From NCBI RefSeq assembly GCF_021869535.1, contig NW_026262679.1, forward strand, positions 92,647,982 through 92,711,981: a DNA stretch of 64,000 nucleotides, read 5' to 3'. The notes beneath the pieces are model-generated. The model saw only the letters and a program-made list of their open reading frames with translations. It ran no database searches and was not told the origin of the DNA. Source of the DNA: Mytilus californianus. Lineage: Eukaryota. Made by a program: the position numbers and the translations under genes. Below are positions 15,066 to 63,883 of the stretch, one piece after another. Position 1 is the stretch's first letter. Each line of letters starts with the position of its first letter.

Positions 15066-18000
15066 TAATAAAATTGAGAATGGAAATGGGGAATGTGTCA
15101 AAGAGACAACAACCCGACCACAGAACAGACAACAGCAGAAGGCCACCAACAGGTCTTCAATGCAGCGAGAAATTCCCGCACCCGGAGGCGTCCTTCAGCT
15201 GGCCCCTAAACAAATATATATACTAGTTCAGTGATAATGAACGTCATACTAAACTCCAAATTGTACACAAGAAACTAAAATTAAAAATAATACAAGACTA
15301 ACAAAGGCTAGAGGCTCCTGACTTGGGACAGGCGCAAAAATGCGGCGGGGTTAAACATGTTTATGAGATCTCAACCCTCCCCCTATACCTCTAGCCAATG
15401 TAGAAAAGTAAACGCATAACAATACGCACATTAAAATTCAGTTCAAGAGAAGTCCGAGTCTGATGTCAGAAGATGTAACCAAAGAAAATAAACAAAATGA
15501 CAATAATACATAAATAACAACAGACTACTAGCAGTTAACTGACATGCCAGCTCCAGACTTCAATTAAACTGATTGAAAGATTATGTCTTCATCATATGAA
15601 TATCAGGCACAATCCTTCCCGTTAGGGGTTTAGTATCATACCATCATAACATATATGAGAAGAACATAACCCGTGTCATGCCAACAACTGGTTTTTAAAT
15701 AAATGTGTTTAGTGCAGATGCAAAGACCTTATAAGTGAATCAATATCAACGCCAAAATATGCAATCTTTAATGACCTGACAACAGTATCGTAACTATATC
15801 CCTTCTTAATAAGTCTATTTAAAGGTTTTGTTAGTTTCAGAGGTGAATACTGACATTTTTGTGCTTTATAAAGAATATTTCCATAAAAAATTGGATGTGA
15901 AATACCTGAACGTATAAGAAGTCTGCATGTTGAGCTATATTTACGAATGATGTCCTTATACCGATGATAAAATTTAGTAAATGTTTTGACTAGTTTGTGA
16001 TATCGAAAACCCTGGTGTTATAATTTTTCAGTAATACATACATTTCTCTCGTTAAAATCTAAAACATTGTTACATACACGAGCGAATCGTACAAGTTGAG
16101 ATATATAAACACCGTAAGATGGTGACAAGGGAACGTCACCATCTAAAAATGGATAATTAACGATAGGAAATGAAAAATCATCTCTTTTATCATATATTTT
16201 AGTATTAAGCTTTCCGTTAATGATATAGATATCAAGATCGAGGAAAGGGCAGTGGTCATTGTTAGTATTAGCTTTATTTAAAGTAAGTTCAACAGGATAA
16301 ATTTCTTTAGTATACATACTGAAGTCGTCATTATTGAGAGCCAAAATATCATCCAAATATCTAAAAGTATTATTAAATTTGTGTATCAGATGTTGTTTCG
16401 ATGGGTCTTTACTGATTTTTGTCATAAATTGTAACTCATAGCAATACAAAAAAAGGTCCGCAATAAGTGGTGCACAGTTAGTCCCCATTGGAATTCCGAT
16501 AACCTGACGATATACGGAATCTCCAAAGCGAACAAAAATGTTATCTAGTAAAAATTCAAGGGCATATATAGTATCAAAGCATGTCCAATTGACATAGTTT
16601 TTTTGTTTATTGCTACTAAAAAATGACCTAAAAGAGTTTGAACATATATATTCACATTCTGACTTTTTAAATGCCCATTTAATTAGGTGTGTGAATTTTT
16701 TCTTAATGAGAATGTGAGGCAATGTGGTATATAGGGTAGAAAAATCAAAACTTTGAACAGATTCAAAATCACCAATATATGCATGCAATTTATCAAGTAC
16801 TTCCAACGAGTTTTTGACACTCCAAAAGTAATTAATTCCACTATTTTCGAAGGCCTTATTTGAACAATTTATTATCAGGTTTTTGATTGTACCAAGTGTA
16901 CTGGTAAGAAGAATAGACAATTTAGTAGTGGAACAATGGCTTGAAGACGAAATGAATCTATATTTGTAAGGTGTTTTGTGTAGCTTCGGAAGCCAATACA
17001 TAGTTGGGACTTTCATTGTATTTGGTTCTGCTTGTAAAGCGGTAGCTAAAAGTTTATGTTTGTTACAGATGTCGTTTTCTGAAAATGGAGTCAGTTGGAA
17101 TGTTGGTGAATTGGTGATTTCTTTTTTCAGAACCTCAATGTAAAATTTACGTCAAACAATAATAATATTATTAGCAGCTTTATCGGCCGGGACAAAAACA
17201 AATTCCTTGGCTAGTTCTTTTAGTTTATGTTTGATACGAGAAATAGGTTTATTGTGGTTATTGTTAAGAGTAAAATGTTCTTTAAAATGTTGAATACGTA
17301 TATCAACTATGTTCATTACTGATTTAAAAAAAGAGTCCAAAGATTTTTTGTCAGCTTTTTCCCGTTTTATCCATTTCAAACAGTAAGTATGGAGTGAGTC
17401 GTGGATGATATTACGACACTCATTCCAATTAATAATTGACGGGGGACGATATTTAGGTCCTTTACTGAGGAATGATTTTAACTCTCGGTCTTGAACGATG
17501 TTAAGATCTCCTGTTATAACATGGGAAATGGGTCCATAAATGTATTCGGAATTACTGCAATTACATGAAGTAGGTGTATTTTCACTGATATTAACATCTT
17601 TACACAATTGGCTATAATTAAACACAAATTTCCGGGTAGATTTCTTGTAAATATAACAAATAAGAGGGAGCTCAGTATTATCAAAATATCCCGGAATTTG
17701 TTCTTTAACAGAATGGTCGTTAAAAATACCGGCAATATTTACAAAATCAAAACCTTTATTGACATACTTTATTTTAATAAACTGTTTTTTATGATCTTCA
17801 GGGCGATCAATTTTGGGAAACAGTTTAGAATAACAATATGCCATTATAATTTGAACGATTTCATACTTAGGACTGCTATATGAAATTGTGTTGCAATCCT
17901 CTAAAATTTTATTTAACTTATTAACCGGTAATGAACAGAGCTTTGTTAACAGATAATGTCTGCCGTTGTTTTTTGAAATAGAAATTAGGTCCGAAATATT

Positions 18001-19087
18001 GGTATGATTGGTCCGAAATTTTCTTTGATTGCGATTTTTTCTACGACCATGAGAACGGTTTTTACGAACAGTTTTAGAAACTATATCCAAAATGTTAACA
18101 GAATCGGTTCTTGATATATTACCAATTCCCATGATATTATCATTAAGACCGAGAGGGTAGACAGTCTGTAATTTTTTAATCCAATTTAATTCAATTATTT
18201 TCCGCGATCGTACAAACTTTGAATGAGATTCACCAGGCTGCTTATTTACTACTTCTAAAGGTTGAACTGCTAAATATTTAATAGGATGATTGTGCTTCTT
18301 AAGGTGTTGATAAATGATACTTTTGAATTTATTGGGTCTTTTAAAACGATACAGATGTTCTTGAGTGCGTTTAGATAAATATCGTCCAGTTTCACCTACG
18401 TACTGAATACCGCATCCCGGTTTGTTTCATGTGAGTAAATAAATTATACTGTTTGTTTTTCAAGTTATATCAGTTTCAAAATTTAAAGAAAATGTGCGAC
18501 CATTAAACGTGGACCTTACCGTATTGTTGGTGGAAAGACGGGGACATGTAAGTCATTTTTTGGCATGACACTTATCGATAGAAGGGTAACCACGATTTTT
18601 ATTGTTAAAAATGTTAGCGATGGTAGTATTTTTAGATAAGCGATTTTGAAGATTGAGACGTGTAGATACCCTTTGAACGAGTTTAGTATTTAATATTTTT
18701 CCATTTCTAAGCTTCATATTTGTTTTTTGTTTGTGAATTATATTAGAAAGGAGCAAAGACTGGCGTCCAGAATATGAACCAGCATACAATGAATTAAATT
18801 ATGTAAAAATGATAAATCTGTTCGGCTAAAGATGTCAAACGCTATCCGTATTAATTACCCGAAAAAGAAAGGGTATATTAGGGTAGCGACTGACGTCTGA
18901 CTAAATAGTAGAATGGGGCTGAATATTGAAATACTACTTTTTGATAAATATTCCTAAAGTAATGAACTAGAGAAGTTCTCGCTCGGACACACACTCCATA
19001 ATCTAGTATATTATAAGAGCATAAACCTGAAGCACGGGGAGGCACTCTACTGTCTCCACACGGCACTAAAGACAAACTCTGTAAAAA
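15066..19087 (-). mobile_element. Full-length Penelope-like retroelement (copy A1), permuted domain order: N-terminal GIY-YIG EN - CxC linker - RT (Naiad-like)
   Basis: It is ~4.0 kb. On the minus strand it holds a ~300-nt 5'UTR, one long reading frame from 18789 to 16018 and a ~640-nt 3'UTR. It abuts the 3' end of the truncated copy A2 at 19087/19088 and is ~99% identical to A2 over 3 kb. The 3' flank is a T/A homopolymer (15050-15060). Confidence 0.85.
16018..18789 (-). CDS. PLE polyprotein: GIY-YIG endonuclease + CxC linker + reverse transcriptase; single frame containing 4 in-frame TGA codons (candidate selenocysteine codons); truncated in this copy by a TTA>TAA change at 16018-16020
   Basis: ORF-track entries 18553..18789, 17152..18132 and 16018..17016 are all in the same frame, with every start coordinate divisible by 3. 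They are separated only by TGA at 18555-18553, 18462-18460, 18429-18427 and 17154-17152; no TAA or TAG occurs in 923 codons. The GIY-YIG domain reads 'IIYLLT*NKPGCGIQYVGETGRYLSKRTQEH...IIELNWIKKLQTVYPLGLND' (18456-18130). The linker carries the CxC motif 'TSCNCS', then 'VPADKAANNIIIV*RKFY'. The RT reads 'YWLPKLHK...YRFISS', 'YRQVIGIPMGTNCAPLIADLFL' and 'FRYLDDILAL'. The first start-like codon is TTG at 18789; the first in-frame ATG is at 18717. Confidence 0.8.
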
Positions 19088-22000
19088 ATAAAATTGAGAA
19101 TGGAAATGGGGAATGTGTCAAAGAGACAACAACCCGACCACAGAACAGACAACAGCAGAAGGCCACCAACAGGTCTTCAATGCAGCGAGAAATTCCCGCA
19201 CCCGGAGGCGTCCTTCAGCTGGCCCCTAAACAAATATATATACTAGTTCAGTGATAATGAACGTCATACTAAACTCCAAATTGTACACAAGAAACTAAAA
19301 TTAAAAATAATACAAGACTAACAAAGGCTAGAGGCTCCTGACTTGGGACAGGCGCAAAAATGCGGCGGGGTTAAACATGTTTATGAGATCTCAACCCTCC
19401 CCCTATACCTCTAGCCAATGTAGAAAAGTAAACGCATAACAATACGCACATTAAAATTCAGTTCAAGAGAAGTCCGAGTCTGATGTCAGAAGATGTAACC
19501 AAAGAAAATAAACAAAATGACAATAATACATAAATAACAACAGACTACTAGCAGTTAACTGACATGCCAGCTCCAGACTTCAATTAAACTGATTGAAAGA
19601 TTATGTCTTCATCATATGAATATCAGGCACAATCCTTCCCGTTAGGGGTTTAGTATCATACCATCATAACATATATGAGAAGAACATAACCCGTGTCATG
19701 CCAACAACTGGTTTTTAAATAAATGTGTTTAGTGCAGATGCAAAGACCTTATAAGTGAATCAATATCAACGCCAAAATATGCAATCTTTAATGACCTGAC
19801 AACAGTATCGTAACTATATCCCTTCTTAATAAGTCTATTTAAAGGTTTTGTTAGTTTCAGAGGTGAATACTGACATTTTTGTGCTTTATAAAGAATATTT
19901 CCATAAAAAATTGGATGTGAAATACCTGAACGTATAAGAAGTCTGCATGTTGAGCTATATTTACGAATGATGTCCTTATACCGATGATAAAATTTAGTAA
20001 ATGTTTTGACTAGTTTGTGATATCGAAAACCCTGGTGTAATAATTTTTCAGTAATACATACATTTCTCTCGTTAAAATCTAAAACATTGTTACATACACG
20101 AGCGAATCGTACAAGTTGAGATATATAAACACCGTAAGATGGTGACAAGGGAACGTCACCATCTAAAAATGGATAATTAACGATAGGAAATGAAAAATCA
20201 TCTCTTTTATCATATATTTTAGTATAAAGCTTTCCGTTAATGATATAGATATCAAGATCGAGGAAAGGGCAGTGGTCATTGTTAGTATTAGCTTTATTTA
20301 AAGTAAGTTCAACAGGATAAATTTCTTTAGTATACATACTGAAGTCGTCATTATTGAGAGCCAAAATATCATCCAAATATCTAAAAGTATTATTAAATTT
20401 GTGTATCAGATGTTGTTTCGATGGGTCTTTACTGATTTTTGTCATAAATTGTAACTCATAGCAATACAAAAAAAGGTCCGCAATAAGTGGTGCACAGTTA
20501 GTCCCCATTGGAATTCCGATAACCTGACGATATACGGAATCTCCAAAGCGAACAAAAATGTTATCTAGTAAAAATTCAAGGGCATATATAGTATCAAAGC
20601 ATGTCCAATTGACATAGTTTTTTTGTTTATTGCTACTAAAAAATGACCTAAAAGAGTTTGAACATATATATTCACATTCTGACTTTTTAAATGCCCATTT
20701 AATTAGGTGTGTGAATTTTTTCTTAATGAGAATGTGAGGCAATGTGGTATATAGGGTAGAAAAATCAAAACTTTGAACAGATTCAAAATCACCAATATAT
20801 GCATGCAATTTATCAAGTACTTCCAACGAGTTTTTGACACTCCAAAAGTAATTAATTCCACTATTTTCGAAGGCCTTATTTGAACAATTTATTATCAGGT
20901 TTTTGATTGTACCAAGTGTACTGGTAAGAAGAATAGACAATTTAGTAGTGGAACAATGGCTTGAAGACGAAATGAATCTATATTTGTAAGGTGTTTTGTG
21001 TAGCTTCGGAAGCCAATACATAGTTGGGACTTTCATTGTATTTGGTTCTGCTTGTAAAGCGGTAGCTAAAAGTTTATGTTTGTTACAGATGTCGTTTTCT
21101 GAAAATGGAGTCAGTTGGAATGTTGGTGAATTGGTGATTTCTTTTTTCAGAACCTCAATGTAAAATTTACGTCAAACAATAATAATATTATTAGCAGCTT
21201 TATCGGCCGGGACAAAAACAAATTCCTTGGCTAGTTCTTTTAGTTTATGTTTGATACGAGAAATAGGTTTATTGTGGTTATTGTTAAGAGTAAAATGTTC
21301 TTTAAAATGTTGAATACGTATATCAACTATGTTCATTACTGATTTAAAAAAAGAGTCCAAAGATTTTTTGTTAGCTTTTTCCCGTTTTATCCATTTCAAA
21401 CAGTAAGTATGGAGTGAGTCGTGGATGATATTACGACACTCATTCCAATTAATAATTGACGGGGGACGATATTTAGGTCCTTTACTGAGGAATGATTTTA
21501 ACTCTCGGTCTTGAACGATGTTAAGATCTCCTGTTATAACATGGGAAATGGGTCCATAAATGTATTCGGAATTACTGCAATTACATGAAGTAGGTGTATT
21601 TTCACTGATATTAACATCTTTACACAATTGGCTATAATTAAACACAAATTTCCGGGTAGATTTCTTGTAAATATAACAAATAAGAGGGAGCTCAGTATTA
21701 TCAAAATATCCCGGAATTTGTTCTTTAACAGAATGGTCGTTAAAAATACCGGCAATATTTACAAAATCAAAACCTTTATTGACATACTTTATTTTAATAA
21801 ACTGTTTTTTATGATCTTCAGGGCGATCAATTTTGGGAAACAGTTTAGAATAACAATATGCCATTATAATTTGAACGATTTCATACTTAGGACTGCTATA
21901 TGAAATTGTGTTGCAATCCTCTAAAATTTTATTTAACTTATTAACCGGTAATGAACAGAGCTTTGTTAACAGATAATGTCTGCCGTTGTTTTTTGAAATA

Positions 22001-22117
22001 GAAATTAGGTCCGAAATATTGGTATGATTGGTCCGAAATTTTCTTTGATTGCGATTTTTTCTACGACCATGAGAACGGTTTTTACGAACAGTTTTAGAAA
22101 CTATATCCAAAATGTTA
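19088..22117 (-). mobile_element. 5'-truncated PLE copy (A2) directly upstream, in element orientation, of full-length A1: pseudo-LTR tandem arrangement
   Basis: Homology to A1 (offset ~4020) runs from the element 3' end at 19088 up to 22117. There the sequence diverges ('aacagaat|aagactag' versus A1 'aacagaat|cggttcttga'), so the EN domain and the first three TGA sites are missing. Confidence 0.85.
19729..22110 (-). CDS. Linker + RT portion of PLE polyprotein (copy A2), continuous frame with one in-frame TGA (21174-21172); intact RT C-terminus ending at TAA 19731-19729
   Basis: ORFs 21172..22110 and 19729..21036 share one frame. The 435-aa RT ORF keeps 'ITEKLLHQGFRYHKL...' where A1 has a stop. 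Confidence 0.75.
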
Positions 22118-26370: not shown

Positions 26371-27449
26371 AATATTGTTTTCATTGGTATGAATATTGAT
26401 TTTGTAATCAGTAAATTAAAACCATACTAAATATGATTGTTATAAATATATGTTATTTCACGGTACTACAATCTGTCGATATCTATATTTTAGCATTGCA
26501 CAATGTCATGTTTTTCTCTGACTGTTAATGACGTCTTTACACTAAATCCATTGGATGTTAGATGTATACTGATTGATATTTTAGTCTTAAATACACGATT
26601 TGTTTTGTTAGTTGTTATTGGCCTTGAACTAGCTGTCAGTAACTACAAGTACTATCAGATCTGTACTTAATGTCTTTTTGTTGTTAGGGATGAGGGATGG
26701 ATACATACCCTGCCACGTCCGGTCCGTGATTTTGTATGATGTTTTTCTGCTTTGTATCGATCTGATGAGTTAAGCCTTTTTCGACAGATTTTTATAGTTT
26801 GTTCTTAAGTTGTGCTGTTACAACACTGTCCCAGTTTAGGGGAGGGTTGAGCGCTCACAAACATGTTTAATCCCTCCACATTCTTTATGTGCCTGTCCCA
26901 AGTCAGGAGCCTGTAGTTCAGAGGATGTCGTTGGTTCATTGTCTGTCATATTTTTTTTTCGTAAATTATTTTGTTATAAATTAGGCCTTTATACAGTTTT
27001 CTCAGTGGAATTGTTTCATATTTGTCATGTCGGGGCCTTATATGGCCGACTATATGGTATGGGTTTTTCTCATTGTTGAAGGCCGTACGGTTGCCCACAA
27101 TTGCTTACATTCACTTTATTTGAACTTTGGTGGATAGTTGTCTCATTGGCAATCATACCACATCTCCTTATTTTTATATTCATCATTTAAAAAACATCCG
27201 TCTTTTTTATGATAATGTTCCTCTTCGGGAGGATTTACTTATAGTACAATGAAAGGATTAAGATAATTATTAATGGAATCAAACTTATGTGTTGTCTTTT
27301 CCTATATGTGAGCAAATTGAATATTTCTTTTATCAAATATTATCTTTTTAATACTTGGAGGTTCACATTGCAAGTAACCTCATGTCGATTAAAGCTTGAC
27401 ATGTTTTCAATTGTCGAAGATCGTATGTATCCTGATATCTAAATAAAGA

Positions 27450-27990
27450 GCTGCGCCATGAACGCATGATACGCCCGTCGCTTTTTCAAAGAATAAAGTT
27501 CCATAACTCCTCAATGTCATATCAGAAATTTATAAAAAAAAACTAAAGGGATGTTATTTTAATAGATATAAAACAGTCACCAAAGTTTTATGAAAACTGC
27601 TCAAAGCACTTTTGAGTTATTGTCCGAAAACTGGAAAATCCCATTTTTTATGAATAAAACCCCATAACTCAGAATCTAAAATTTATAAAAATCGAAAGGG
27701 AGCTGACGTCACTAGATACATGTATAAACAATTCACCAAAGTTTCACGAAAATTGCTTAAAGCATTTTTGAGTTATTGTCCAAAAACTGGAACCCCCCTT
27801 TTTTAATGAATAAAACCCCATAACTCAGAATCTAAAATTTATAAAAATCGAAAGGGAGCTCATGTCAATAGAGATAAACAATCCACCAAAGTTTCATGCA
27901 AATTGGTTAAAGCGTTTTTGAGTTACTGTCCGACATGTTGACGATGGACGGATGGACAACGGTATACCATAATACGTCCCGTAAACGGGC
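27450..27990 (+). mobile_element. pearl/Helentron-like nonautonomous element (three ~140-bp internal subrepeats, GACGG tail, terminal hairpin)
   Basis: It starts 'gagctgcgccatgaacgcatgatacgcccgtcg', like the element at 7180. It carries three subrepeats ('aaaatttataaaaatcgaaagggagct...caccaaagttt(c/t)a...') and ends 'gttgacgatggacggatggacaacgg...gtcccgtaaacgggcat' (hairpin). Confidence 0.55.
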
Positions 27991-28767
27991 ATATAAAAAC
28001 GATTCGTTTTCTTAAACAACATATTATCAAGAACATTTAGCAATTATACAATTCATTTTCTATGTCTAAAGTCTAAAGTTATTCAATTAAAACGACAACA
28101 TTTGTCGAAGGTCGACCATCATAATGATTTAAAATATTTTATTAAAATAAATATTGCCTGCAGCGTACTGAAAACATCTTCAAAGATAGCTTGGCTTATG
28201 AAGTAGTACGCCAGACGCAAGTTTCGTATACACAAGGCTCATTAGTGGTACTGTTGAAATGCCAAATCTATTACGAAATACTATATAACTGAAAACCAAA
28301 AATTCCAAGTTTTGCAATGTCTTGCTTAGAACATCTAAGCCTTTGGGTAGAACACCTTAGTGTTTCGAAGGATTTTAACATTATATGAACATTAAATTTA
28401 CAGACAATGACCGCCTCAATGATACTTCCTGTCATCATTGCATGGAGGGCTGTATACTAGGCCCTTGATACCTTAGAGGGGAGACTCCGCCATTAGTGTT
28501 ATCGACCCAGTTATGGAAGTTATTTACATCTAAAAATAATCGATGAAATTTATATTTCCACAAATGTTGTAAGTTAATTGCTAAATGCTGATTTAAAAAT
28601 CTTTAGACATATCTTAGATGGTTATTAAATTGATGGTCACCCATTATATATATGGAAAGTAAAACCGAAACTAAAATTCAATAAATGAATTAAAAATAGA
28701 TTAGAATAAATTTACACTGGGAATTTCTTTTTTCCGAGGACGTGTCAGTGACAGGGTTCTAAATAAA

Positions 28768-37785: not shown

Positions 37786-37885
37786 GCATGGGCCTCGGTG
37801 GCCGAGTGGTCTAAGTAGCCGAACTTTTGTATCACTAGCCTATCAACACTGAGGAATATGATTTGGAATCCCGCACGTGGCAGGT
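37786..37885 (+). other. tRNA-like sequence (probable tRNA-derived SINE head / pseudo-tRNA), not a functional tRNA
   Basis: It has an A-box-like 'tggccgagtggtctaag' and a B-box-like 'ttggaatccc'. The spacing is ~70 nt and no proper acceptor or T stems can be drawn. Confidence 0.2.
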
Positions 37886-38732
37886 GCGCTTGACTCCAAT
37901 CTCAATCAAATAAGATTGTCAGTTTTCCTACCGAAGGTCGATGGTTCTCTCCGGCTTCTTCCACCAATAGAAACTGACCTCCACGAAATAGCACAATAGT
38001 GCTGAAAGTGGCGTTAAACACCAATCAATCAAAGAAGTGATAACACTATTTATTTTTTATTTATAATGTATATGACCGGAAGTAACTTTATTTCTTTATT
38101 GAATCTTTTCATTAAAGAGACTTTGTAAGTTCCAGTTTCTAAGCCAAATAAAAAGTCTTAAAGCAGCACAGTTTGCCTCGAGTTGATGTGAGTGTCTTTA
38201 CACCCAGATATCACTTCCAATATCTGGTGTGGTGTTGAGACAGCTGTATCCATAGAAAAGTAAGCACTGTTCAGTTTTATAGACAAATGCTGTACAATTG
38301 GTTCCATGATGCAGACACAAGTAAGCACAGTAAATCTTTGTTTTGGAATTCTTGGTTAAATAAGAAAGAGTAATTGGGATGGAATCTGTCTTGTCAACAT
38401 GGAAATACCTTGAATCTGTTTTAAAATATTAAAAATACGATATTTAGGTGGAAAATGTTGCAAATATTTACATCGGAAAACAACGGTAGATCAGTTAAAG
38501 TTATACAAAAAATAACCACTCTTAACAAACTTTATTTATCTAATTAATTTATTATCCCTTCTTTATTAAACTTATAGTGGCTATTATGCATATAAATCAA
38601 TAATTTAATAAATTCAAAAGGCAAAGATGCAAACAAACAAAAAATCCACTTCCCTGTTATCTCCTTGTTTTGTCATCTCTTTCTTTTTTTTCAATTCCGT
38701 GAAATTTTAACGTTGTTAGTTATTTTACTTAC

Positions 38733-40249: not shown

Positions 40250-40564
40250 GGTAAGAAAACTCAATGAAACAATATACAGACAACGGTAAGAAAACTCAAT
40301 GAAACAATATACAGACAACGGTAAGTAAACTCAATGAAACAATATACAGACAACGGTAAGAAAACTCAATGAAACAATATACAGACAACGGTAAGAAAAC
40401 TCAATGAAACAATATACAGACAACGGTAAGAAAACTCAATGAAACAATATACAGACAACGGTAAGAAAACTCAATGAAACAATATACAGACAACGGTAAA
40501 AAAACTCAATGAAACAATATACAGACAACGGTAAGAAAACTCAATGAAACAATATACAGACAAT
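40250..40564. repeat. 35-bp minisatellite, ~9 units (ggtaagaaaactcaatgaaacaatatacagacaac)n
   Basis: 'ggtaag' recurs at 40250, 40285, 40320 and so on up to 40530. It lies in the intron immediately upstream, in gene orientation, of CTLD exon 40227-40089. Confidence 0.9.
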
Positions 40565-53100: not shown

Positions 53101-54249
53101 ATTATCTCTCTACCTGATGATACAATAAGCTAGAGCTTGCATTCCATACCATTGATAGAGGGTTGCTGCTAAGAAAGTTTCATGGATGCCATCATGAGTT
53201 GGTTGACCGTTATGAAATGTCTGTGTCACTAATGATAACCAAAATAATCAATTTGTTGTAGCCACAATCCTGTTCTCTTTTTCTTGTTTGTGACATCACA
53301 AAATTAGACTGACCAACAGGTTTTTACTTACCATGAGCAATATGGGTAGTACCTAGGAGGTTGGTTTGCTCAATCTTAAGTTGTCTTTGAAGTGCTTTGT
53401 GGGCAATTTTTGTTTTTTGTGTTTTTGATTCCTTGCTCTTTGTTACATTCTCTTCCAACTTGTGTTTTTTTTTAATTGTTCCTGTGTTATCTTTCACCTC
53501 TTTTTTTTTTTAGCAAACATGATCAATGTTGCAAGTTCTATTAACCCTAAACATGTCTTCTAGTTTTCAAGGTAATAGCAAAAAAACAAAATATTGGTAA
53601 AAAATCATCATTATGGGGCAATAACAGTCTACCTAGGATTTCGGTCATGTTTGACTTATTTGTAGATCTTGTCTTGCTGATCATTTTTGCCATTTGAAGT
53701 CTCTCTCTACCTATTATACTTTTCAAGATAATAGGCAAAAATAGTCTTCTAAGAGTAATGCCTCGTACAAGGATTCGTCCAACAGTTTTGGTGTAAGTGG
53801 ACATTTTGGATGTCTCTATTTGTATTCTTATATTCATTTTCCTGTCTTTTGTTTTATAACATGATGCACATGCTTTTTTATAAACGTTAAACAGATCATG
53901 TGTTCATGTCAGTGTCCAGATGATGCTTTGAATGTGTAAAACACAGAAAGGGTTATGTTAGCACTCCAGGAAATTCCAAATAGTTCAAATTAAGAAACAA
54001 TAGCCAGCAGGTTAGGGATTGAATAAGACTTGAAATCAAAATTTCATGGGCAGTAACTTTAAAATAGTCCAATAGATTTTTGGGACATTTTCAGTAAGAC
54101 CTTGTTGTGATGGCTATTTTTACTTGTTAGTTTTTCTCTAAATTCTTTTAATAGTTTTCGATATATTAGCTAAAAAACTGCAGTTTGCACCTTATTTTCT
54201 ATTATTGGCCTTAGTGGCCGTCTTGGTTGATCTATCTAGATCCAAAATC

Positions 54250-55010
54250 ACATAAAGATGCCAGACAGAACAACACACCACAAGCATTCTGAGAGTATTA
54301 ATGGCAATACATAGTCCTCTACCGAACAAAACAAATCATTCTACTGGAACAAAATTTTAACTTGATCTATGAATTGTCATGGTGTAAACTATATAAGAAA
54401 TCAATATTTTCAAGTATAAGGAAAGAAAGAGTGGAAAACTAATTATTTGCATGAATTTTCCAAGAACCATAATCTCTGCACAAAATCATCATACTGGAAC
54501 AAAATTCAAACCGGACCTATAACTTGTCATGGTCAAATTACATACTAAAATCAAATCAATATCTTTATTTAAAGCATGACGAAAAAAGTGTGGAAAACTG
54601 ATTTCTTGCATGAATTTTCGAAGTCTGAGAACTTTAACTCTGCAAAATAATCATCGGGACTGAATATAATTCGAACTTGATCTGTAATGGTAAAACTAAA
54701 TACCAAACATCAAATCAATATCTAAGCATGACGACAAAGTGCGGACAACTGATTACTTGGCGTGAATTTTGAAGTCCAAGGACCATAACTCTGCACAAAA
54801 CCATCAGACCGGAACAAAATTTAAACATGATCTGCAACTGGTCATGACAAAACTAAATACCAAATATCAAAACAATATCTTCAAGCACGAAGAAAAAAAG
54901 TGGAAAACTGATTTGTTGGACTGACTGATGGACAGACAGACGGACGGACGAAGTGCAAACCTATAGTCAGTCCCCTTTGACTTCGTCGATAGGGGACTAA
55001 TAAGGCATCT
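54250..55010 (+). mobile_element. pearl/Helentron-like nonautonomous element (four ~165-bp internal subrepeats)
   Basis: The subrepeats read '...ctgcacaaaa(t/c)catca(t/g)actggaacaaaatt(c/t)aaac...gatctg(c/t)aa...caaatcaatatct...gtggaaaactgatt'. It ends 'ctgactgatggacagacagacggacggacgaagtg...tagtcagtcccct...aggggactaata' (a GACGG/ACAG tetramer run plus terminal hairpin). Confidence 0.55.
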
Positions 55011-55599
55011 GTATATCAGATATGAATAATCCAGCTGTTTTACCTTCTGAAACATAAATAACTATTTAGCATCGGTTTGTCATGTCTGTCTTGCATTTTG
55101 AGATTTACATTGCAGGCAAGACAAAAATCACTAAAAATGTTCTTACAATTTAGTATTTGTGGTTAACAAATGTAAACCTTCGATTTAGTTAACAATGGCA
55201 AAATGTGTTCTTTGGTGCCAAACATTGACAAATACAATTTTCCTTGCATATAAATTTGTGTATTTGTACATTTTTATTTTTTCTGATTCTGGGTCTTGTT
55301 TGTTTTGTTCATCAAATATATGTTTAGTTTGAACTAATTCTCCTCTTCCTTTCTGAATCCATGTTTTTGGCCCTTCTCCATAAAGTTTGTGTAGGTGTTG
55401 ATTTCAAGTAGCTGAGTGATAGCAATCTGAAATATATATGTATTGATATATAATTTTGATTAAAATTGTCATTCAAGGGCAATTAATCCTAAGTTTTTAG
55501 TTTTTAAAAGTTTATCTGTATCAGCTATAGATTCTGCAAATAACATAAACTAAAGGCTCCAGTATTGCTAACATAGCACATCTGCATAAAGCTTATACA

Positions 55600-56100
55600 A
55601 TGTAATAAGAAATAGATATCATTGAGATGTGAGCCATCTGTGTGGACCCCGCTGTGAATAATGTGTGGTAAAAAATTTGTATCTTTATCATTGGACATGG
55701 GGTTGTCAACTGAAACCAAAGTTTTTGACCTTGACCTTTGACCTAAGAAGTTGTACATAAATTATGACACACCCTCTGGTGTTGGTTTATATACATGTCG
55801 AGTATAAATTTTGAAATCATAACGGTTCTCAAGATTTAGAGCAGACACGATCTTTACCATAGGACATGGGGTTGTCAACTAAAACCAGTTTTTGACCTTG
55901 ACCTTTGACCTAGGAAGTTGTACATACATTATGACACACCCTCTGGTGTTGGTTAATATACATGTCAAGTATAAACTTTGACATCATAATGGTTCTCGAG
56001 ATATAGAGCAGACACAACTTGTTATGGAATGACGGACGGACAGACAGACACAGACTGATCACTATAGGGCGTCTGCCATTCGGCAGGGCCCTAATTATTC
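55600..56100 (+). mobile_element. pearl/Helentron-like nonautonomous element (two ~163-bp subrepeats)
   Basis: '...cattggacatggggttgtcaact(g/a)aaacca...tttgaccttgacctttgacctaagaagttgtacata...' occurs twice. It ends 'ggaatgacggacggacagacagacacagactgatcactatagggcgtctgccattcggcagggccc'. Confidence 0.55.
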
Positions 56101-56479
56101 ATAAAGTTTTGACAAAAAACCCAAAAATGGGTAAAAATCAGCCATCAAGGATTCCACTGATGGTTTCAGTCATTTGACATATTTGTAGATCTTATTTCGC
56201 TGCTAACATTTGCTATTTACAAGTTCTCTCTATCTACCAAGTTTCTGCAAAAAACTCTTACTTAGGTGACAATGAAGGCCAAATAATAAGAAAATAATCA
56301 CTGTCTTAACTAGAGGCTCTAAAGAGCCTGTGTCGCTCACCTTGGTATATGTGCATATTAAACAAAGGACAAAGATGGATTCATGACATAATTGTGTTTT
56401 GGTGATGGTGATGTGTTTGTAGATCTTACTTTACTGAACATTCTTACTGCTTACAATTATCTCTATCTATAATGAACTA

Positions 56480-57600
56480 GGCCCAGTAGTTACAGTGGAA
56501 AATATTTTGTAAAAATTTACAAAAATTTACAAAATTTATGAAAAAATTGTAAAAAATTGACTATAAAGGGCAACAACTCCTTAAGGGGTCAATTGACAAT
56601 TTTGGTCATGTTGACTTATTTGTAGATCTTACTTTGCTGTACATTATTGCTGTTTACAGTTTATCTCTATCTATAATAATATTCAAGATAATAACCAAAA
56701 GCTGCAAAATTTTCTTAAAATTACCAATTCAGGGGCAGCAACCCAACAACGTGTTGCCTGATTGGTCTGAAAATTTCAGGGCAGATAGATCTTGACCTGA
56801 TAATCAGTTTTACCCTTCGTCAGATTTACTCTAAATGCTTTGGTTTCAGAGATATAAGCCAAAATCTACATTTTACCCCTATGTTCTATTTTTAGCCATG
56901 TCGGCCATCTTGGTTCGCGGGCGGGGTCATCAGACACATTTTTTAAACTATATACCCTAATGATGATTGTGTAAAAGTTTGGTTAAATTTGTCTTAGTAG
57001 TTTCAGAGGAGAAGATTTTTGTAAAAGATAACAAAAATTTACGAAAAATGGTTAAAAATTGACTATAAAGGGCAATAACTCCTTAAGGGGTCAACTGACC
57101 ATTTTGGTCAGGTTGACTTATTTGTAGATCTTACTTTGCTGAACATTATTGCTGTTTACAGTTTATCTCTATCTATAATAATATTTAAGATAATAACCAA
57201 AAACAGCAAAATTTCCTTAAAATTACCAATTCAGGGGCAGCAACCCAACAACGGGTTGTCCGATTCATCTGAAAATTTCAGGGCAGATAGATCTTGACCT
57301 GATTAACAATTTTACCCCATGTCAGATTTGCTCTAAAAGCTTTGGTTTCGGAGATATAAGCCAAAATCTACATTTTACCCCTATGTTCTATTTTTAGCCA
57401 TGGCGACAATCTTGGTAGGTTGGCGGGGTCATCGGACACATTTTTTAAACTAGATACTTGAATGATGATTGTGTTTAAGTTTGGGTGCATTTGGCCCAGT
57501 AGTTTCAGAGGAGAAGATTTTTTTAAAAGTTTACGGACGACGGACGCAAAGTGATGAGAAAAGCTCACTTGACCTTTCAGGTCAGGTGAGCTAAAAATGG
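56480..57600 (+). mobile_element. pearl/Helentron-like nonautonomous element (two ~490-540-bp subrepeats)
   Basis: '...gactataaagggcaa(c/t)aactccttaaggggtcaa(t/c)tgac...ttgacttatttgtagatcttactttgctg...' occurs twice, at 56500-57040 and 57040-57530. It ends 'gtttacggacgacggacgcaaagtgatgagaaaagctcacttgacctttcaggtcaggtgagct' (hairpin). Related partial subrepeats lie at 53620-53720, 56100-56480 and 58340-58580. Confidence 0.5.
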
Positions 57601-58943
57601 ACCAAAGACTCAAATGGCCAGGTCGTGCTGAATGTTTCTTAAACAATAGACACAGGTTTTTACTGAATATTTCAATCTATATCATAAAAAAACAAACTCT
57701 GCTTCAATGTCCCTTTTCCTACTGGAGGTAGCTGCATTTCAAACATCCAGCACAGCTAAATTGACACATATCTTTATAATAGATTCGAAGAGAAAAGTCC
57801 ATGTGAACCTATTTCTATAATCAAGTCAGCCCTGGAGTTGAATACAAAATGATTGATGCAAAGTGACATCAATTGATTATACAGCCCTATGGACATGATG
57901 AGCAACTAGCTTCTTGTAATCTCTACTTACCGAACTATACTCAACAGAGAATGGAAGTCATCAACTGTCATGCTTTTACTATCAACTTTTCTTATCTCTA
58001 CAAAGTCATCTTGGATTATCTAAAAGAAATATTTTTTATCTTTAGACAACAAAGAAATATTCAGCTCTTCCTTAGCTACTAAAAGCTGATTTCAGGGTCC
58101 CCTTTTTATATAAACATAAAAGTTGGAATCTTATTTGAAAAACTAAAATTGTCTACAATGTGAGACTGGTTCCTCTTATCAGCTAGAGGCTCCCAGGAGC
58201 CTGAATCACTCATTGTACACCCTAGGAATAATAAGATCAAGTTTGATATATCAATTAATTATAGATCTATTCTTGTTTGGAAAATGGAAAATCATAGCAA
58301 AATATGGGTAAAAATTCTTAAAGGTATCAGTAAATGAATTTGGTCATGCGTGACCTTTGTACATCTTAGTCTTATGACCTACTTGGTGATAATTTTTTCT
58401 GTCTTCTTTACTTTTCAAGATAACAAAGTGGGTTAAGATAGTCATTTACAGGCAATAACTCCCATAAGGAGTCAACATTTCAGTCAAAATGATTTAATTG
58501 TATTGTTGATAATTTTTGCCTTTTACAGTTTATACCTTTCTATTATAGTTTTCTAGACAATAGGCAAAAACTCAATACTTACAAAAAAAGTCATTTAGGG
58601 GCATCGATAAAAGTTCCAAAAATTATGAAAAATAAGAACATCATTATTTTATGTTTAGAATGAAGAAAACTTGTACATGTACTTGTAAAGTGTGGAGAAT
58701 AATTTAAAATCATTGGACTAACTGTTAATTTAGAATTTCGTAATCACATCCTAGTGTAGGTAGATACATCTGATTCACATACTTTATGATGAGAGCACTG
58801 TGTATTTATTGTGAACACTGTTCTGAACCCATTGTCCTTGGGTTGTTATATAAATTGTCTTACAACCCCTTTCTAATTTTTTTCAGGAATAGCTCTAAAA
58901 AATAAAGATAATAATCAGTTTTATTTCCTGTTCATGAACATAC

Positions 58944-59108
58944 CTTTTGCAATTCATCTGTTAATGAGTAATTAATCTGTTTGGCCAGTGTGATGTATGT
59001 GCGAATCTTGGTCAACAATTCTGCTGTCATTCCTTTTTCTAACATGTTAAAATGTGCTATCCAATCTTCTGGCATTATTTTGGCTTGTAATGGTAGTAAA
59101 CAATCACT
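58944..59108 (-). CDS. Exon of unidentified multi-exon gene (SDCLLPLQAKIMPEDWIAHFNMLEKGMTAELLTKIRTYITLAKQINYSLTDELQK)
   Basis: The acceptor is 'ggagggttttttcag|agtg' and the donor is 'gcaaaag|gtatgt'. It is 165 nt, phase 0 to 0. This continues the frame of the exon at 60978-61111. Confidence 0.5.
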
Positions 59109-59559
59109 CTGAAAAAACCCTCCAAGATTCAAATAGCAATCAATATAATAGTTTCCTGTCTGATATATATTTCATGTATTGACTGATTGATTGTTGGTGT
59201 TTTATGCCACTTTCATTACAATTGGCTATATCAAGCATGTGGCAGTAAGATTTTATTGGTGAAGGAGGCCAGAGTGCCCAGAAAGAACCACAGACCTTCT
59301 GCTGGAAAACTGACAATCCTTGTGAATTAAGATTGGAATGCACCTGCCACATGTGGGGTTTCAACTCACGTCAGTGTTGACAGGCTAGTTGTACAGTAGG
59401 TAAACTACTGAGACAACTCTGCCTATTCCTTGTGCTGTAAGGTGCATCAAGGAGAAGACTGTTAAACTGTCAATTCAGTAATGAATTATACTGAATTCCA
59501 GTACTTCAGAAGATGTTGTCATGAGCTAGAATCATTCACTTTCAAATAAATGGAGAATG

Positions 59560-60300
59560 TGACCCCATGGACACAGATGATGCCCCCACTTGCATATATA
59601 CATTATAAAGGGACATAACTCAAGAACAATAAAAGTGACGCTACCCAAATTTGTACTTGATCTGAGTTTTAAGGTAATAAGTATTGTGTATAGGTTTCAT
59701 AATGTTTGGTTGGGGCAAACTTAAGTTACAGAACGGAAACTAAAAATTTTGCAATTTTTCCATTTATAAAAGGGCATAACTCGATAATGATTAAAGTGAC
59801 GATACCAAAATTCAACTTGATCTGTGTTTTGTGGTAAAAAGCATTGTGTATAAGTTTCATAACATTTGGTTGAGGCAAACTAAAATTAGAGAACGGCAAC
59901 TAAAAATTTTGCAATTTTTCCATTTATGAAGGGCATAACTCTAGAACAGTTAGAGTGATGCTACCAAAATTCAATCTTGATCTGTATTTTGTGGTAATAA
60001 GCATTGTGTATAAGTTTCATAACATTTGGTTAAGGCAAACTTAAGTTAGAGCATGGAAACTAAAAATTTTGCAATTTTTCCATTTATAAAGGGGCATAAC
60101 TATAGAACAGTTAAAGTGACGCCACCAAAATTCAAACTTGACCTGTGTTTTGTGTTAATTAGCATTGTGTGTAAGTTTCTTAACATTTGGTTGAGGCAAA
60201 CTCAAGTTAGAGAACAGAAACCGATTTTGGGACTACAGTCGGACAAGGATAAAACTTAATGCCCCCTCCGCTACGGCTCGGGCATAATTACCCATTGCCT
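59560..60300 (+). mobile_element. pearl/Helentron-like nonautonomous element (~146-bp subrepeats x4.5)
   Basis: '...aaagggcataactc(a/t)a(g/t)aa...aaagtgacg(c/a)taccaaaattcaa(c/t)ttgatctg...tttggtt(g/a)(g/a)ggcaaact(t/a)aa(g/a)tta(c/g)agaa(c/t)gg(a/c)aactaaaaattttgcaatttttccatttat' repeats four times. It ends 'ggactacagtcggacaaggataaaacttaatgccccctccgctacggctcgggcat' (hairpin). Confidence 0.55.
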
Positions 60301-60977
60301 TGGTTACCATGAATAATGTAAGGGTCAAGTTTAAAGTGAACTGAGTGAGATTTCAAATGAGGGCTAATCCACTTAAACATTCATGGTACCCAGGGCAGGC
60401 ACTGAGCAAAAAGGGGTAACTATCGAGAGAGATAATTTAAGTTTTACTCTTACCCTTTCACTGTACAAAAACACTCACTCATAGCTGTGATTTCTAAGAG
60501 CATTCCCTGTGTCCAATGTATGTTTTTTTTTGTGACAGCCCTAAGAAGCTTTTTCATAGTTATTTCCCATTTATTAAAAGTCTTTTATCTAATGAAACTG
60601 CTGAGAAACAAATGAAGAAAATTTATGTTATCTGCAACTTCATAAAAGTCCAGAAAGTACAGATAATGGCCCTTTGAAACAGCATTCAGAAAAAGGGATA
60701 AGGGATTCCCCATATCCCCAACATTACTGTTTAAGAGAAGAATTTTGAAAACTTAATGAATGACGAATACCAATAGATGGTTAAATCGGAACCTTTGGAC
60801 CAAGCAAGTTAAAAATAGAAGAGAAAAATTAAGTGACTTAACTTGAATCTGTAAACTCTAATAAAAAAAATATTTTTTGCTTAAAAGTGATGTGGTGACC
60901 TAAGGCAGTTTTTAAACATGACCTGGAGACCTAATGTGGGTGCCCTACTGGAGCCCCATTAGTAGCAGCATACTTAC

Positions 60978-61111
60978 AGGTAATATAGATTTTGCCTCAG
61001 ACAGAATCATTACAGCAACGTTTGCCATGAAATCTTGTCTATGGTAACTGAAATCATACTCTACTTTCTGCCAGCTAATCAGGTTTCCTAATGCTGTCAT
61101 GTTCTTAACAC
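60978..61111 (-). CDS. Exon of unidentified gene ([44 protein letters not shown])
   Basis: The acceptor is 'tcttcttgtctttccag|gtg' and the donor is 'attacct|gtaagt'. The phase-1 start completes the phase-1 end of exon 62336-62501, giving Gly. Confidence 0.5.
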
Positions 61112-61329
61112 CTGGAAAGACAAGAAGATCACCAAAATTACAGTACAATACACATGTATAGCTTACCATTTAAAATAAACATGTTGCATTTATTACAAAA
61201 CTCTTCCCTAAAGAGTATGCACAGAAAATAGAGCAATGAAATTCACCAATCAAAACTTGCATTACAAAATTATTTTCCACGGTGTATGATTAAGTTTCTA
61301 ACATTTTAAATGTACCTGTTCAAAGCATT

Positions 61330-61420
61330 CAGTGAGTAGTTGCTTACATTTTTGTTCTTTGGTCTTATGATGATAGTTGTCTCACTGGCAATCATACCAC
61401 ATTTCCTTATTTTTATATTG
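61330..61420 (+). repeat. PLE 3'-terminal fragment (family B tail)
   Basis: 'gatgatagttgtctcactggcaatcataccacatttccttatttttatattg'. Confidence 0.5.
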
Positions 61421-61589
61421 AAGTGATTTGATGGTCAATATCTAAATTGTTTATCAAATACATTCTACATGCGCAGCAAATTATTGACATGGCTAAACAT
61501 ACATATTTTTCTCCATATTTACAAACCCAAATCTCAAATTTGTATACTCATGCAGAGAAGCACAAACACATCCGTTGGATACTTATAGT

Positions 61590-62110
61590 TTGGCATTGTA
61601 CAATGTCATGTTTTTCTCAGCCTGTTTATGAAGTCTTTAACTAAATCCAGTGGATGTGTACTGATTGATTTGTCTGAGAGACATGATTTATTTTGAAGTT
61701 TTATCAAATAGGCCTTGAACTACCTTCTATAACTGAGAACCCTTAGATCTGTACTTCGTGTCATAGGTATATTTTTTAGTTGCTGTTTTTGCTTTGTGGT
61801 GATCTGATGAGTCAAGTTTTTTCAACTGGTTTTCACAGTCGGTTCATATGTTGTCCTGTTAAACAACTATCCCAGGTTAGACAGAGGGTGGAGTGCTTGA
61901 AAACATGTTTAACCCCACCACATACTGTATGTGCTATCTACTTCAGTGGTTGTTGTTGGTTGCTGTCTATCATATTTGTTTGCTATTTGTTATGTACATA
62001 TATCAGGCAGTTGGTCTTCTATCATTTGAATTGTTTTATATTGTCTCATGTCATGGGCCTTTTATAACTTACTATACGGTATGGGTGATGCTCACTGTGT
62101 GAGTCTGTAT
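61590..62110 (+). repeat. PLE family-B 3'-UTR fragment (~520 bp)
   Basis: It is collinear with 26480-27090: 'cattgtacaatgtcatgtttttctc', 'gatctgatgagtcaag', 'ggttagacagagggtggagtgcttgaaaacatgtttaaccccacc' and 'ggccttttataacttactatacggtatgggtgatgctcactgt'. Confidence 0.55.
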
Positions 62111-62335
62111 GGTGAACATAAGATAGTTACCTATATCTACATCATTTCGTCTTTGGTGTAAAGTTGGTATTCATAACATATCTTTTTTTTTATATTTATA
62201 TAATTCAAAGGAAAACTCTATTAATTTTACAAATCTTGAATTTTTTTCCGATTTTGCTGAATTCTCTTAAAAGGCAAGAAGTGATATAATATACATGAAC
62301 AGAGCTTGATAAGATAAATATTATACCCAACATAC

Positions 62336-62501
62336 CACCAGCTTCAAGTTGACCAGGTTGTAGTACTGTTTCATCTATGACTAATGATGTCCTTTCAGGT
62401 AGTTGCAAGACTCCAGATTTTAAACGGTTTGCTGTGTAGTCTTTTTCTGGACATAATCGTAAAGAATTCATGTTTTCTATCGACAAGGGGAGTAAATGCG
62501 A
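62336..62501 (-). CDS. Exon of unidentified gene (SHLLPLSIENMNSLRLCPEKDYTANRLKSGVLQLPERTSLVIDETVLQPGQLEAG)
   Basis: The acceptor is 'ctttttattttcag|tcgc' and the donor is 'gctggtg|gtatgt'. It is 166 nt and ends in phase 1. Confidence 0.5.
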
Positions 62502-63883
62502 CTGAAAATAAAAAGTGATTGTTATAAGTATGCACTCAAAAATCGTGATTTGATTGGGAAAATGTCTTTTTGACTTAACAAGAAAAAGACATGGTTAAAA
62601 ATAATACAACATGTGGTTTACAATAATCTGACAAAATAATTTATCTGGTACATTAGCTGAGAAGTCTTGCAAAATCAGAAAACCCCAATATACATGATGC
62701 TACACATTGATTTATTCTTTGACTCAAATGACGTAAGGGACATAGGAGATATAACTGTATTTGACAACTTATGCCATAACTACTATGAGATGACGATAGG
62801 ACAGATGCAGCAAGTGATGGCTTTAACCCATTGTAAAGTCTCATTCTATCTTTCTGGTTTACCAATAATTATTTATATACTTTATTTTAGTTGATTCGTG
62901 TTTTAAGGTGTTCCTCATGATTATTTGACTCATGATCATGTTGTTAGAGCTTTTATATCTAGGTGTTGTTTGAGATTCTTTTAGACCTTGTATTTGTAGC
63001 TCTCTTGTTTAGGTGTTCCATGTGATCTTTTAAAACCCTGTATTTGAAGTTCTCTTATTTAGATGTATGTGATGATTTATTTCCACCAAATCTGTACTTG
63101 AATCATTATTCTTAGCATAGTTCTACGGTGTTGCCCAACTACTTGAATGAAATGACTAGACCTTTAGACATACAGTACATATTTTTATGTCACTCTATGG
63201 AACCAATACACCAATCCAAGCAACAAAAGGGGGAACTAAACAACCTTGACAATATATACATGACCATCAGACTAAAGACATACCGAAAGACATATCATTG
63301 AACCCGTCACTTCTGAATAAACCGAATAGTATATCTCAATGAGTTTGCTGCTGACAACAAGATGATTCATATATATTTTCTAAATTTATTCATAAAATAT
63401 AAATTGATTTTGGCCCTTGGGAGTCAGTTACTCAGGGAAGGGAAATTTAGCTCCAGGCCCTGTCGATGACACTAGAATAGATTGACCAAGCCCCATGGAC
63501 ATGGACACTCCGTCAACCAACCGGAACAAGATGAGTTCCTATAAGGGGATGAAGCGTTGCTCCATCTCGCAGCAGGTGGCTACGATAAAAGGGGGTTAGA
63601 TTGACGGTGGAGAGAGAAATGCATGTAGATGTATTACATTTAATGACTTGGGGGAAATGAGAAATTAGACCAGTGGTCAATTTCGAAAGGGTCCGAAAAG
63701 TCAGGTGTGAAACAGCTGAGTGACCCCCAAGAAAGTAAATGGGGAAGATTAGGTTATGAGCAAGCCTTCATCTACTCACTGAGGAATTATATTAAAACAT
63801 TTGAACATAGTTTAATAAAACACATATATCTGTAGTTCTGATAATGAAAATCAAATGTAGGAAAGTTAACTCTTGATGCAATC

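Follow-up and report, generated by a model that had tools for sequence, protein, structure and literature searches.

Probable HINE-type, Helentron-derived elements clustered at the MCMBP gene in mytilid-like DNA

The stretch of DNA analysed here, 64 kb of contig NW_026262679.1 (the window), is AT-rich and animal-like (GC ~0.33). It holds the 3' part of the gene for MCMBP, the MCM-binding protein, together with seven repeat-bearing elements, here called E7k, E27k, E54k, E55k, E56k, E58k and E59k. Coordinates are positions in the window, and the sense strand of the elements is the window's minus strand. The elements are very probably non-autonomous rolling-circle transposons of the Helentron lineage, belonging to the HINE group (pearl, DTC84, Cg_HINE), in a host resembling a mytilid mussel. 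Elements of this type are already well described in bivalves; the analysis adds corrected orientation and boundaries, an account of both ends of one mussel HINE family that covariation backs, and the co-orientation of same-family neighbours.

Layout of the elements

Tandem arrays were located with Tandem Repeats Finder (TRF; longest period 500) and by self-BLAST of the window. Together with pattern searches, these recovered all six elements that an earlier note on this DNA had described as sharing one orientation, at or near the positions it gave. The orientation is the same throughout, and the common layout, read along the plus strand, is a left flank, an array, a degenerate (GACR)n run and a GC hairpin (Table 1). 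The architecture of array, run and hairpin proposed in the note holds in the five complete copies, in all of which 63–84 bp separate the array end from the inferred element end. E7k lacks the hairpin, and in E59k, one of the five, the run is reduced to a remnant (GGACTACAGTCGGACAAGG). Array units in the six elements measure 150–510 bp. The ~510-bp unit of E56k contains a subunit of ~100–135 bp that recurs nearby, and the other five arrays have units of 150–167 bp.

Some boundaries and the count had to be revised. The start of E56k had been put at 56480, but its left terminus and the homology in other loci place it at 56308. That left terminus, CTAGAGGCTCNNNNGAGCCTG, gave two matches in a pattern search of the window against none expected. 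The second match, at 58183, marks a truncated seventh copy, E58k, where only six had been counted. E58k has neither run nor 5' hairpin, and its positions 58451–58571 resemble 57071–57204 at 70% identity (self-BLAST). The boundaries of E55k are set by analogy only, because it has no other copy among the fetched loci described below.

Relatedness of the monomers was judged by local alignment against shuffles under stringent scoring, with an nhmmer profile search in addition. The subrepeats had been thought unrelated from element to element, and for most pairs this stands. E7k and E27k are the clear departure. They align from GAGCTGCGCC through the run with a local score of 239 versus a shuffle mean of 19.6, and the nhmmer match at 7313–7470 has an E value of 7.5e-36. 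The two thus form one family, and therefore not every cargo is different. The array of E7k, at about 7300–7520, is the shorter one, and E7k is taken to have no 5' hairpin because its alignment with E27k diverges just ahead of that point. The monomers of E54k and E59k share a weak motif of ~35 bp, seen as reciprocal, in-register nhmmer matches (E 0.02–2.6). The remaining monomer pairs are unrelated by local alignment under the stringent scoring.

The tetramer run is concentrated at the elements. With at most one mismatch allowed, the pattern GACRGACRGACR has nine occurrences in the window, where shuffles predict 0.47; eight of them are on the plus strand and at elements. Plus-strand matches lie directly 3' of the arrays at 27947, 54927–54950 and 56031–56050. 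The ninth, a GACR-like match on the minus strand at 35810, was rejected as an element, having neither array nor hairpin. The run is degenerate in E56k (ACGGACG ACGGACGC), E27k and E7k. The other tandem repeats of the window (35 bp x9 at 40250; 97 bp x2 at 11930; a 642-bp array at ~1100–4875) do not have the element architecture, so the succession of array, run and hairpin is no general property of local repeats. The first of these, at 40250–40563, is a young minisatellite with 98% identical units and no HINE features, and it serves as an internal contrast.

Table 1. Elements, fragments and MCMBP exons in the window. Flank and terminus are named for the sense strand, which is the minus strand of the window; IR, inverted repeat; ORF, open reading frame; subTIR, subterminal inverted repeat.
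Feature	Positions	Strand	Sense-3' flank or terminus	Array	Run	5' hairpin and right end	Basis and remarks
E7k	7181–7563	minus	GAGCTGCGCC...	~1.3 monomers	degenerate		truncated copy of the E27k family
E27k	27448–27999	minus	27448–27576; subTIR ATACGCCCGT at 27469–27478	27577–27933, 156 bp x2.3 (TRF)	27940–27962	weak hairpin 27972–27994; A-run ATAAAAA ending 27999	complete; TRF, sequence
E54k	54257–55003	minus	54257–54332; 3' subTIR TAGTCCTCTACCGA at 54312–54325	54333–54919, ~150 bp x4, 72–74% identity (self-BLAST)	54920–54951, 8 tetramers	subTIR+IR hairpin 54969–54998; terminal TAATAA to 55003	self-BLAST, regular-expression scan
E55k	55624–56097	minus	left boundary ~55624 uncertain	55681–56015, 167 bp x2, 92% identity (TRF)	56031–56055	hairpin 56065–56093; end TAATTA	TRF, pattern search
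E56k	56308–57597	minus	terminus and palindrome CTAGAGGCTCTAAAGAGCCTG at 56310–56330; 3' subTIR TCGCTCACCT at 56333–56342	56485–57529, ~510 bp x2, 88% identity (self-BLAST)	ACGGACGACGGACGC at 57533–57547	subTIR+IR hairpin 57562–57592, 13-bp arms; A-run AAAAA 57593–57597	best-defined element
E58k	58183–58620	minus	terminus CTAGAGGCTCCCAGGAGCCTG	~400 bp of diverged unit			seventh copy, E56k type, truncated
E59k	59552–60290	minus	left flank from ~59552 (±5)	59603–60221, 160 bp x3.9, 86% identity (TRF)	60230–60248, remnant	hairpin 60259–60285; TAATTA end at 60290	
Fragment	53638–53744	minus					older piece of E56k unit, ~80% identity (self-BLAST); matches L011, L062
Fragment	56147–56236	minus					older piece of E56k unit between E55k and E56k, 77–82% identity; matches in loci too
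MCMBP gene, 3' part	55327–62594	minus					Pfam PF09739
MCMBP exon	within ORF 62208–62594	minus					PF09739 profile positions 362–422
MCMBP exon	within ORF 60948–61169	minus					PF09739 profile positions 418–468
MCMBP exon	within ORF 58935–59171	minus					PF09739 profile positions 462–519
MCMBP exon, inferred	57930–58019	minus					translation, splice-site reading
MCMBP exon, inferred	~55327–55420	minus					with stop codon; translation, splice-site reading

Termini and dispersed copies

Hairpins were folded as single-stranded DNA, and their energies were compared with those of shuffles (z). The 5' hairpins of E56k (-11.5 kcal/mol, z -4.8), E55k (-10.7, z -4.6) and E54k (-8.0, z -2.6) stand out, and those of E27k (-3.9, z -0.4) and E59k (-6.9, z -1.3) are no better in energy than shuffles. 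In E54k, E56k and E59k, 5 nt separate the inferred terminus from the start of the predicted stem. At the opposite end, the 3' palindrome of E56k folds with -6.0 kcal/mol (z -2.1). The subTIRs of E56k, AGCTCACCT and AGGTGAGCG (TCGCTCACCT versus AGGTGAGCTA), match over 10 bp with one mismatch. E54k has a 14-bp inverted match with two mismatches, and the E54k-type copy in locus L042 shares GTCCCCTACC exactly (10/10). The flanks of E27k give a 10-bp inverted match with one mismatch, and E55k and E59k give matches of only 6–8 bp. The candidate 3' subTIRs fall short of the 11-bp identity asked for in the literature (published definition 11–15 bp), being either shorter or more decayed.

Copies of the E56k family were sought in one metagenome scan with its left terminus, which returned 104 stretches. 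About 61 of these are AT-rich animal contigs (mussel-derived), and they were used for the left-end counts; the fetched mussel-like DNA totals 313 kb. On the ~61 contigs, the homology begins exactly at CTAGAGG, and the DNA upstream is unrelated among copies. AA precedes the plus-strand left end in 54 of 61 E56k-type copies, corresponding to a TT target on the sense strand and bearing out the T-rich target that had been anticipated for these elements. The E56k-type 3' palindrome has a stem of 6–7 bp (GGCTCN/NGAGCC) situated 5 nt from the end. The outermost positions of its loop, N1 and N4, can pair in 49 of the 61 copies (A-T 24, C-G 17, T-A 8). Because complementarity runs through three Watson–Crick pair types, compensatory change keeps a 7-bp stem.

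The right end is equally sharp. Nine loci stop their homology at window position 57597, and ten further right ends read (ACGG)n-GCCAAGTGATGGCAAT-AGCTCACNTGRCC-loop-GGYCANGTGAGCT-AAAAA before passing into unrelated flanks. Among 11 E56k-type copies, positions 10 and 11 of the 5' hairpin covary, alternating G-C with T-A or A-T. The A-runs after the right end are 2–6 long in copies of this type. On the sense strand, the 5' module is TTTTT-AGCTCACCTGRCC...GGYCANGTGAGCT, with the 5' end TTTTTAGCTC..., and the 3' module is ...CAGGCTCNNNNGAGCCTCTAG, with the 3' end CAGGTGAGCGNTTACAGGCTCNNNNGAGCCTCTAG. No target-site duplication was seen around the three complete E56k-type copies checked (L033, L096 and the window copy).

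Between these termini, the interior is variable. The copy in L011 is 87% identical to window positions 56308–57099, and across the collection the conserved ~37-bp E56k terminus is joined to ~30 different internal sequences. One terminal module with so many interiors fits the proposal in the literature that satellite-like repeats are dispersed through bivalve genomes by non-autonomous Helentrons. A minimal E56k-type copy of ~111 bp (L095, 3772–3883) has no central repeats at all, so the central array is dispensable. In L092 (JYMV01048790.1, ~700–1200), the 3'-terminal module itself is reiterated about four times with a spacing of 57–83 bp.

A lack of conserved termini had been named beforehand as grounds for refuting the identity proposed in the earlier note. 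For the E56k type this objection fails, its ends being conserved and sharp in ~60 copies, and two other families also keep their flanks outside the window. An E59k-type copy in L084 (72–75% identity) retains both flanks, and its right end abuts an E56k-type end, CTAGAGGCTC. The E54k-type copy in L042 (Ga0256844_10001932, 6101–6480) retains its flanks and ends at the same base as the window copy. The E27k type has two copies, both in the window.

The E56k-type terminus also occurs at 2530–2549 of L105 (NZ_CDSC02000015.1) and at 424–443 of L106 (NZ_CDSC02000101.1), which are filed as the Bathymodiolus azoricus thioautotrophic gill symbiont BazSymA. Their GC content is 0.33–0.35, and they also carry the commonest HINE body; they are probably contamination of a bacterial genome record by host DNA. 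Since the terminus thus occurs in host-like contigs of a Bathymodiolus symbiont assembly, we place the E56k family in Mytilidae, and it is through these HINE matches that the host is read as mytilid-like. A protein search with an MCMBP exon gave only fragments, with 58–76% identity. A scan of viral contigs with the E56k terminus gave no matches. A full-text literature search for the terminus string CTAGAGGCTC returned only unrelated papers, none linked to bivalve elements. The contig of L040 carries what we take, by eye from its list of open reading frames, to be a forkhead/FOXO-like exon.

Identity of the elements and competing explanations

In Cg_HINE and other HINEs, a 5' subTIR with a complementary inverted repeat and a GTCY microsatellite is followed by central satellite-like repeats and then by a 3' subTIR and palindrome (PMC7492417). 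Insertion is into TT without target-site duplication (PMC7492417; PMC4067079). The window layout equals the antisense strand of the published elements, and the hairpin beside (GTCY)n is therefore the Helentron 5' subTIR with its inverted repeat, not the 3' palindrome. The mussel elements display the 5' hairpin, the (GTCY)n run, the central array, the E56k-type 3' palindrome, TT insertion and dispersed copies. The pearl/Helentron-like rolling-circle identity first suggested for them is supported by a layout that matches published pearl, DTC84 and Cg_HINE and by conserved termini with covariation.

The closest parallel is Cg_HINE of Crassostrea gigas (Vojvoda Zeljko et al. 2020, PMC7492417), which likewise consists of a left module, a family-specific central array and a right module, inserts into T-rich or TT sites without duplication and uses gene introns as sites. 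Some Cg_HINEs carry two consecutive arrays (PMC7492417). The present elements differ in having a mytilid-like host and no sequence similarity to anything quoted in that paper, and E56k carries ~510-bp units where five arrays here have units of 150–167 bp. Cg_HINEs are also reported in both orientations (PMC7492417), whereas all window copies are co-oriented. Pearl of Crassostrea virginica (Gaffney et al. 2003) and DTC84 of Donax trunculus (PMC3879986) follow the same modular formula in the direction of the window's plus strand. They have an L flank, 1–5 core repeats of ~160 bp, (ACGG/ACGA/ACAG)n and an R flank with inverted repeats, and their termini carry AA (PMC3879986). Flank and repeat sequences are family-specific in both, and DTC84 has an ordered series of repeat variants (PMC3879986).

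DINE-1 and HINEs of Drosophila, mites and mosquitoes (Thomas et al. 2014, PMC4067079) resemble the mussel elements in their subTIRs, microsatellite, 3' stem-loop and TT target. Their inverted repeat lies 3–22 bp from the 5' subTIR, central repeats are optional and 2–5 T's stand at the boundaries (PMC4067079). Unlike the case here, those taxa have identified autonomous Helentrons with matching termini (PMC4067079), and the DINE-1 core sequence is absent from the mussel elements. MgE of Mytilus galloprovincialis (Kourtidis et al. 2006, as cited in PMC3879986) is described there as a pearl-like element that bears tandem repeats and sits in mussel introns. According to that description, MgE has no microsatellite segment, whereas the window elements have one.

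Several observations weigh against the HINE identity. Insertion is read from element boundaries only, and AG rather than AA stands ahead of E58k. The subTIR matches of the E27k, E55k and E59k types are short (6–10 bp), and the 3' palindromes of the same types are 4–5-bp stems no better than shuffles. E55k is without a second copy among the fetched loci. Finally, no autonomous Helentron with these termini was found in the window or in the 313 kb of mussel-like DNA.

The search for such a partner covered motifs and open reading frames (ORFs). The motif [VI]ExQxRG[SL][PL]HxH, quoted as diagnostic of Rep by Thomas et al. (PMC4067079), is absent by regular expression from six-frame translations of the window and 106 loci. 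The partner-search patterns gave one match in all, to a P-loop, and the locus concerned is GC-rich and presumably bacterial. The elements themselves have no coding capacity and hold no ORF of 110 aa or more. None of the window ORFs of at least 110 aa is Rep/Hel, the long ones being reverse transcriptase (RT)-like or unannotated, and a Pfam scan of 20 window ORFs gave only MCM_bind and one sub-threshold match. The ORFs of the loci include none that is obviously Rep/Hel-like by inspection of the ORF list, without a Pfam scan. In the window, ARAGORN found no genes and Rfam no matches.

Canonical Helitrons transpose by the rolling-circle route with an HUH Rep and helicase and carry a hairpin near the 3' terminus, and HINEs are assigned to that superfamily too. 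At its 3' end the E56k type has CTAG, in keeping with the canonical CTRR motif. We nevertheless rejected a canonical Helitron, since the elements carry subTIRs, read TTTTTAGCTC... at the sense 5' end and have T's on both flanks. Canonical Helitrons start with TC, have no subTIRs and insert between A and T (PMC4067079), whereas the mussel elements start with a T-run followed by the subTIR hairpin and sit in TT.

The best of the remaining alternatives, in our judgement an improbable one, is that these are miniature transposable elements with inverted repeats (MITEs), moved by cut-and-paste: a DDE transposase would act on their inverted repeats, which it recognises, and would leave a duplicated AA target. 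There are inverted repeats at both ends and A's at both boundaries, and pearl and DTC84 were first described in this way, with AA target duplication (PMC3879986). However, the inverted repeats are subterminal rather than terminal, and the ends are asymmetric, with a 13-bp-arm hairpin and a microsatellite at one and a subTIR and a separate palindrome at the other. The flanking A-runs vary from 2 to 6 with no fixed duplication, and head-to-tail junctions occur in L090 and L102. In addition, the group was re-classified as Helentron-derived once autonomous partners were found in other taxa (PMC7492417, PMC4067079).

That the window merely holds independent minisatellites beside GACR-type microsatellites, with no mobile element involved, is most improbable. 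Five of the six internal arrays are mutually unrelated and E55k has no second copy in the data, as this explanation would have it. But array, run and hairpin follow one another in the same order and at the same spacing in the five complete copies, dispersed copies on other contigs keep the flanks and have sharp boundaries, the hairpins covary, and the window's other minisatellites have none of these features. For the E56k, E54k, E59k and E27k/E7k types, the minisatellite explanation is effectively refuted.

No more credible is a short interspersed nuclear element (SINE)-like retroposon whose plus-strand A-run after the hairpin (AAAAA in E56k, ATAAAAA in E27k) would be a poly(A)-type tail, possibly including the microsatellite: a tRNA-, 5S- or 7SL-like head is lacking, Rfam gives no match, target-site duplications do not flank the complete copies, the 'tail' is 2–6 A's or, in three families, TAATTA or TAATAA, and conserved, covarying hairpins stand at both ends.

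On the sense strand, the elements read as a few T's, a GC-rich 5' subTIR paired with a nearby complementary inverted repeat into a hairpin, and a decaying (GTCY)n run. Then come a family-specific, short satellite-like array, a candidate 3' subTIR complementary to the 5' one and a short 3' palindrome near the end. By analogy with the published family, they would be mobilised in trans by the Rep/helicase(-endonuclease) of an autonomous Helentron elsewhere in the genome. The hairpin modules at the ends would be its recognition sites, and T-rich DNA would receive the single-stranded copies that it inserts. Again by analogy, the arrays inside the elements may vary in copy number through slippage or unequal exchange and could seed satellites. 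In practice, genome annotation should mask these elements or label them as Helentron-derived repeats. Care is needed not to take their hairpins, tetramer runs and ~160-bp arrays for features that regulate or structure MCMBP.

Neighbouring copies and the MCMBP gene

The E56k-type elements keep a common orientation wherever they are neighbours. In nine of nine stretches with at least two distinct E56k-type elements (eight loci and the window), all termini are on one strand, which amounts to ~10 neighbouring pairs without exception. Head-to-tail junctions of the form GAGCT-AAA-CTAGAGG, with AAA alone between the elements, occur in L090 (236–290) and L102 (7714–7750); the E59k-type copy against an E56k-type end in L084 makes three abutments in total. 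Co-orientation is no strict rule across families, because in L042 (5700–6860) the E54k-type copy is oriented against its two E56k-type neighbours, one of which turns its 3' end towards it and the other its 5' end. With microsatellite orientation as a family-independent proxy, the loci yield three same and two opposite cases. These are too few, and the claim of co-orientation is therefore restricted to the E56k type.

Tandem arrays of Helitrons have already been reported in the literature, and the strict co-orientation and head-to-tail abutment of same-family neighbours is only a mildly new point. It might reflect same-family HINEs that integrate beside resident copies in a fixed orientation, or that arrive as rolling-circle concatemers, although we regard this as rather unlikely. 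If it were true, the seven co-oriented window copies would represent an early stage on the way from a dispersed transposon to a composite or satellite array. Orientation-specific self-targeting, directed at the T-run of element termini, would drive that stage.

The four elements within 6 kb had been seen as a local hotspot or a nested array. The cluster itself is real, with co-oriented neighbours and older fragments, but nesting is not demonstrated. Fragments of the E56k unit flank E55k and E56k, and insertion of the two into an older element was considered on that account; the sequence to the left of E55k is unrelated, and the idea was dropped. The cluster in the last introns and the 3' flank of MCMBP is best read as a set of co-oriented insertions made independently, with older fragments among them.

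Within that gene, E59k lies in the intron bounded by the ~61.0-kb and 59.0-kb exons, E58k in the next intron, and E55k and E56k share the last one. E54k is in the 3' flank, ~320 bp downstream of the inferred stop codon. All elements of the MCMBP cluster are in the sense orientation of the gene. Between an MCMBP exon and E59k sits an interspersed repeat of ~240 bp (59187–59423, plus strand), of which a second, 71% identical copy lies at 37800–38032 on the minus strand. Up to 18 matches to it occur among the mussel-like metagenome loci. The repeat, which may be a SINE, has no relation to the HINEs.

Two further repeats lie farther to the left. The 642-bp tandem array at ~1100–4875 was missed by TRF because its unit exceeds the longest period allowed. 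Its copies are ~98–100% identical, and diverged copies reach the left window edge. No HINE run or hairpin is found at its right end. Each unit carries an open frame of 103–116 aa, and the frame tested (1613–1960) has no Pfam match. On the minus strand, 16018–18132 and 19729–22110 form a direct duplication of ~4 kb with two long ORFs per copy. Neither ORF matches Pfam at E<=0.01. One of them is RT-like (motif ...FRYLDDILAL...), and an exact look-up of the 435-aa RT-like ORF in a protein collection returned no record.

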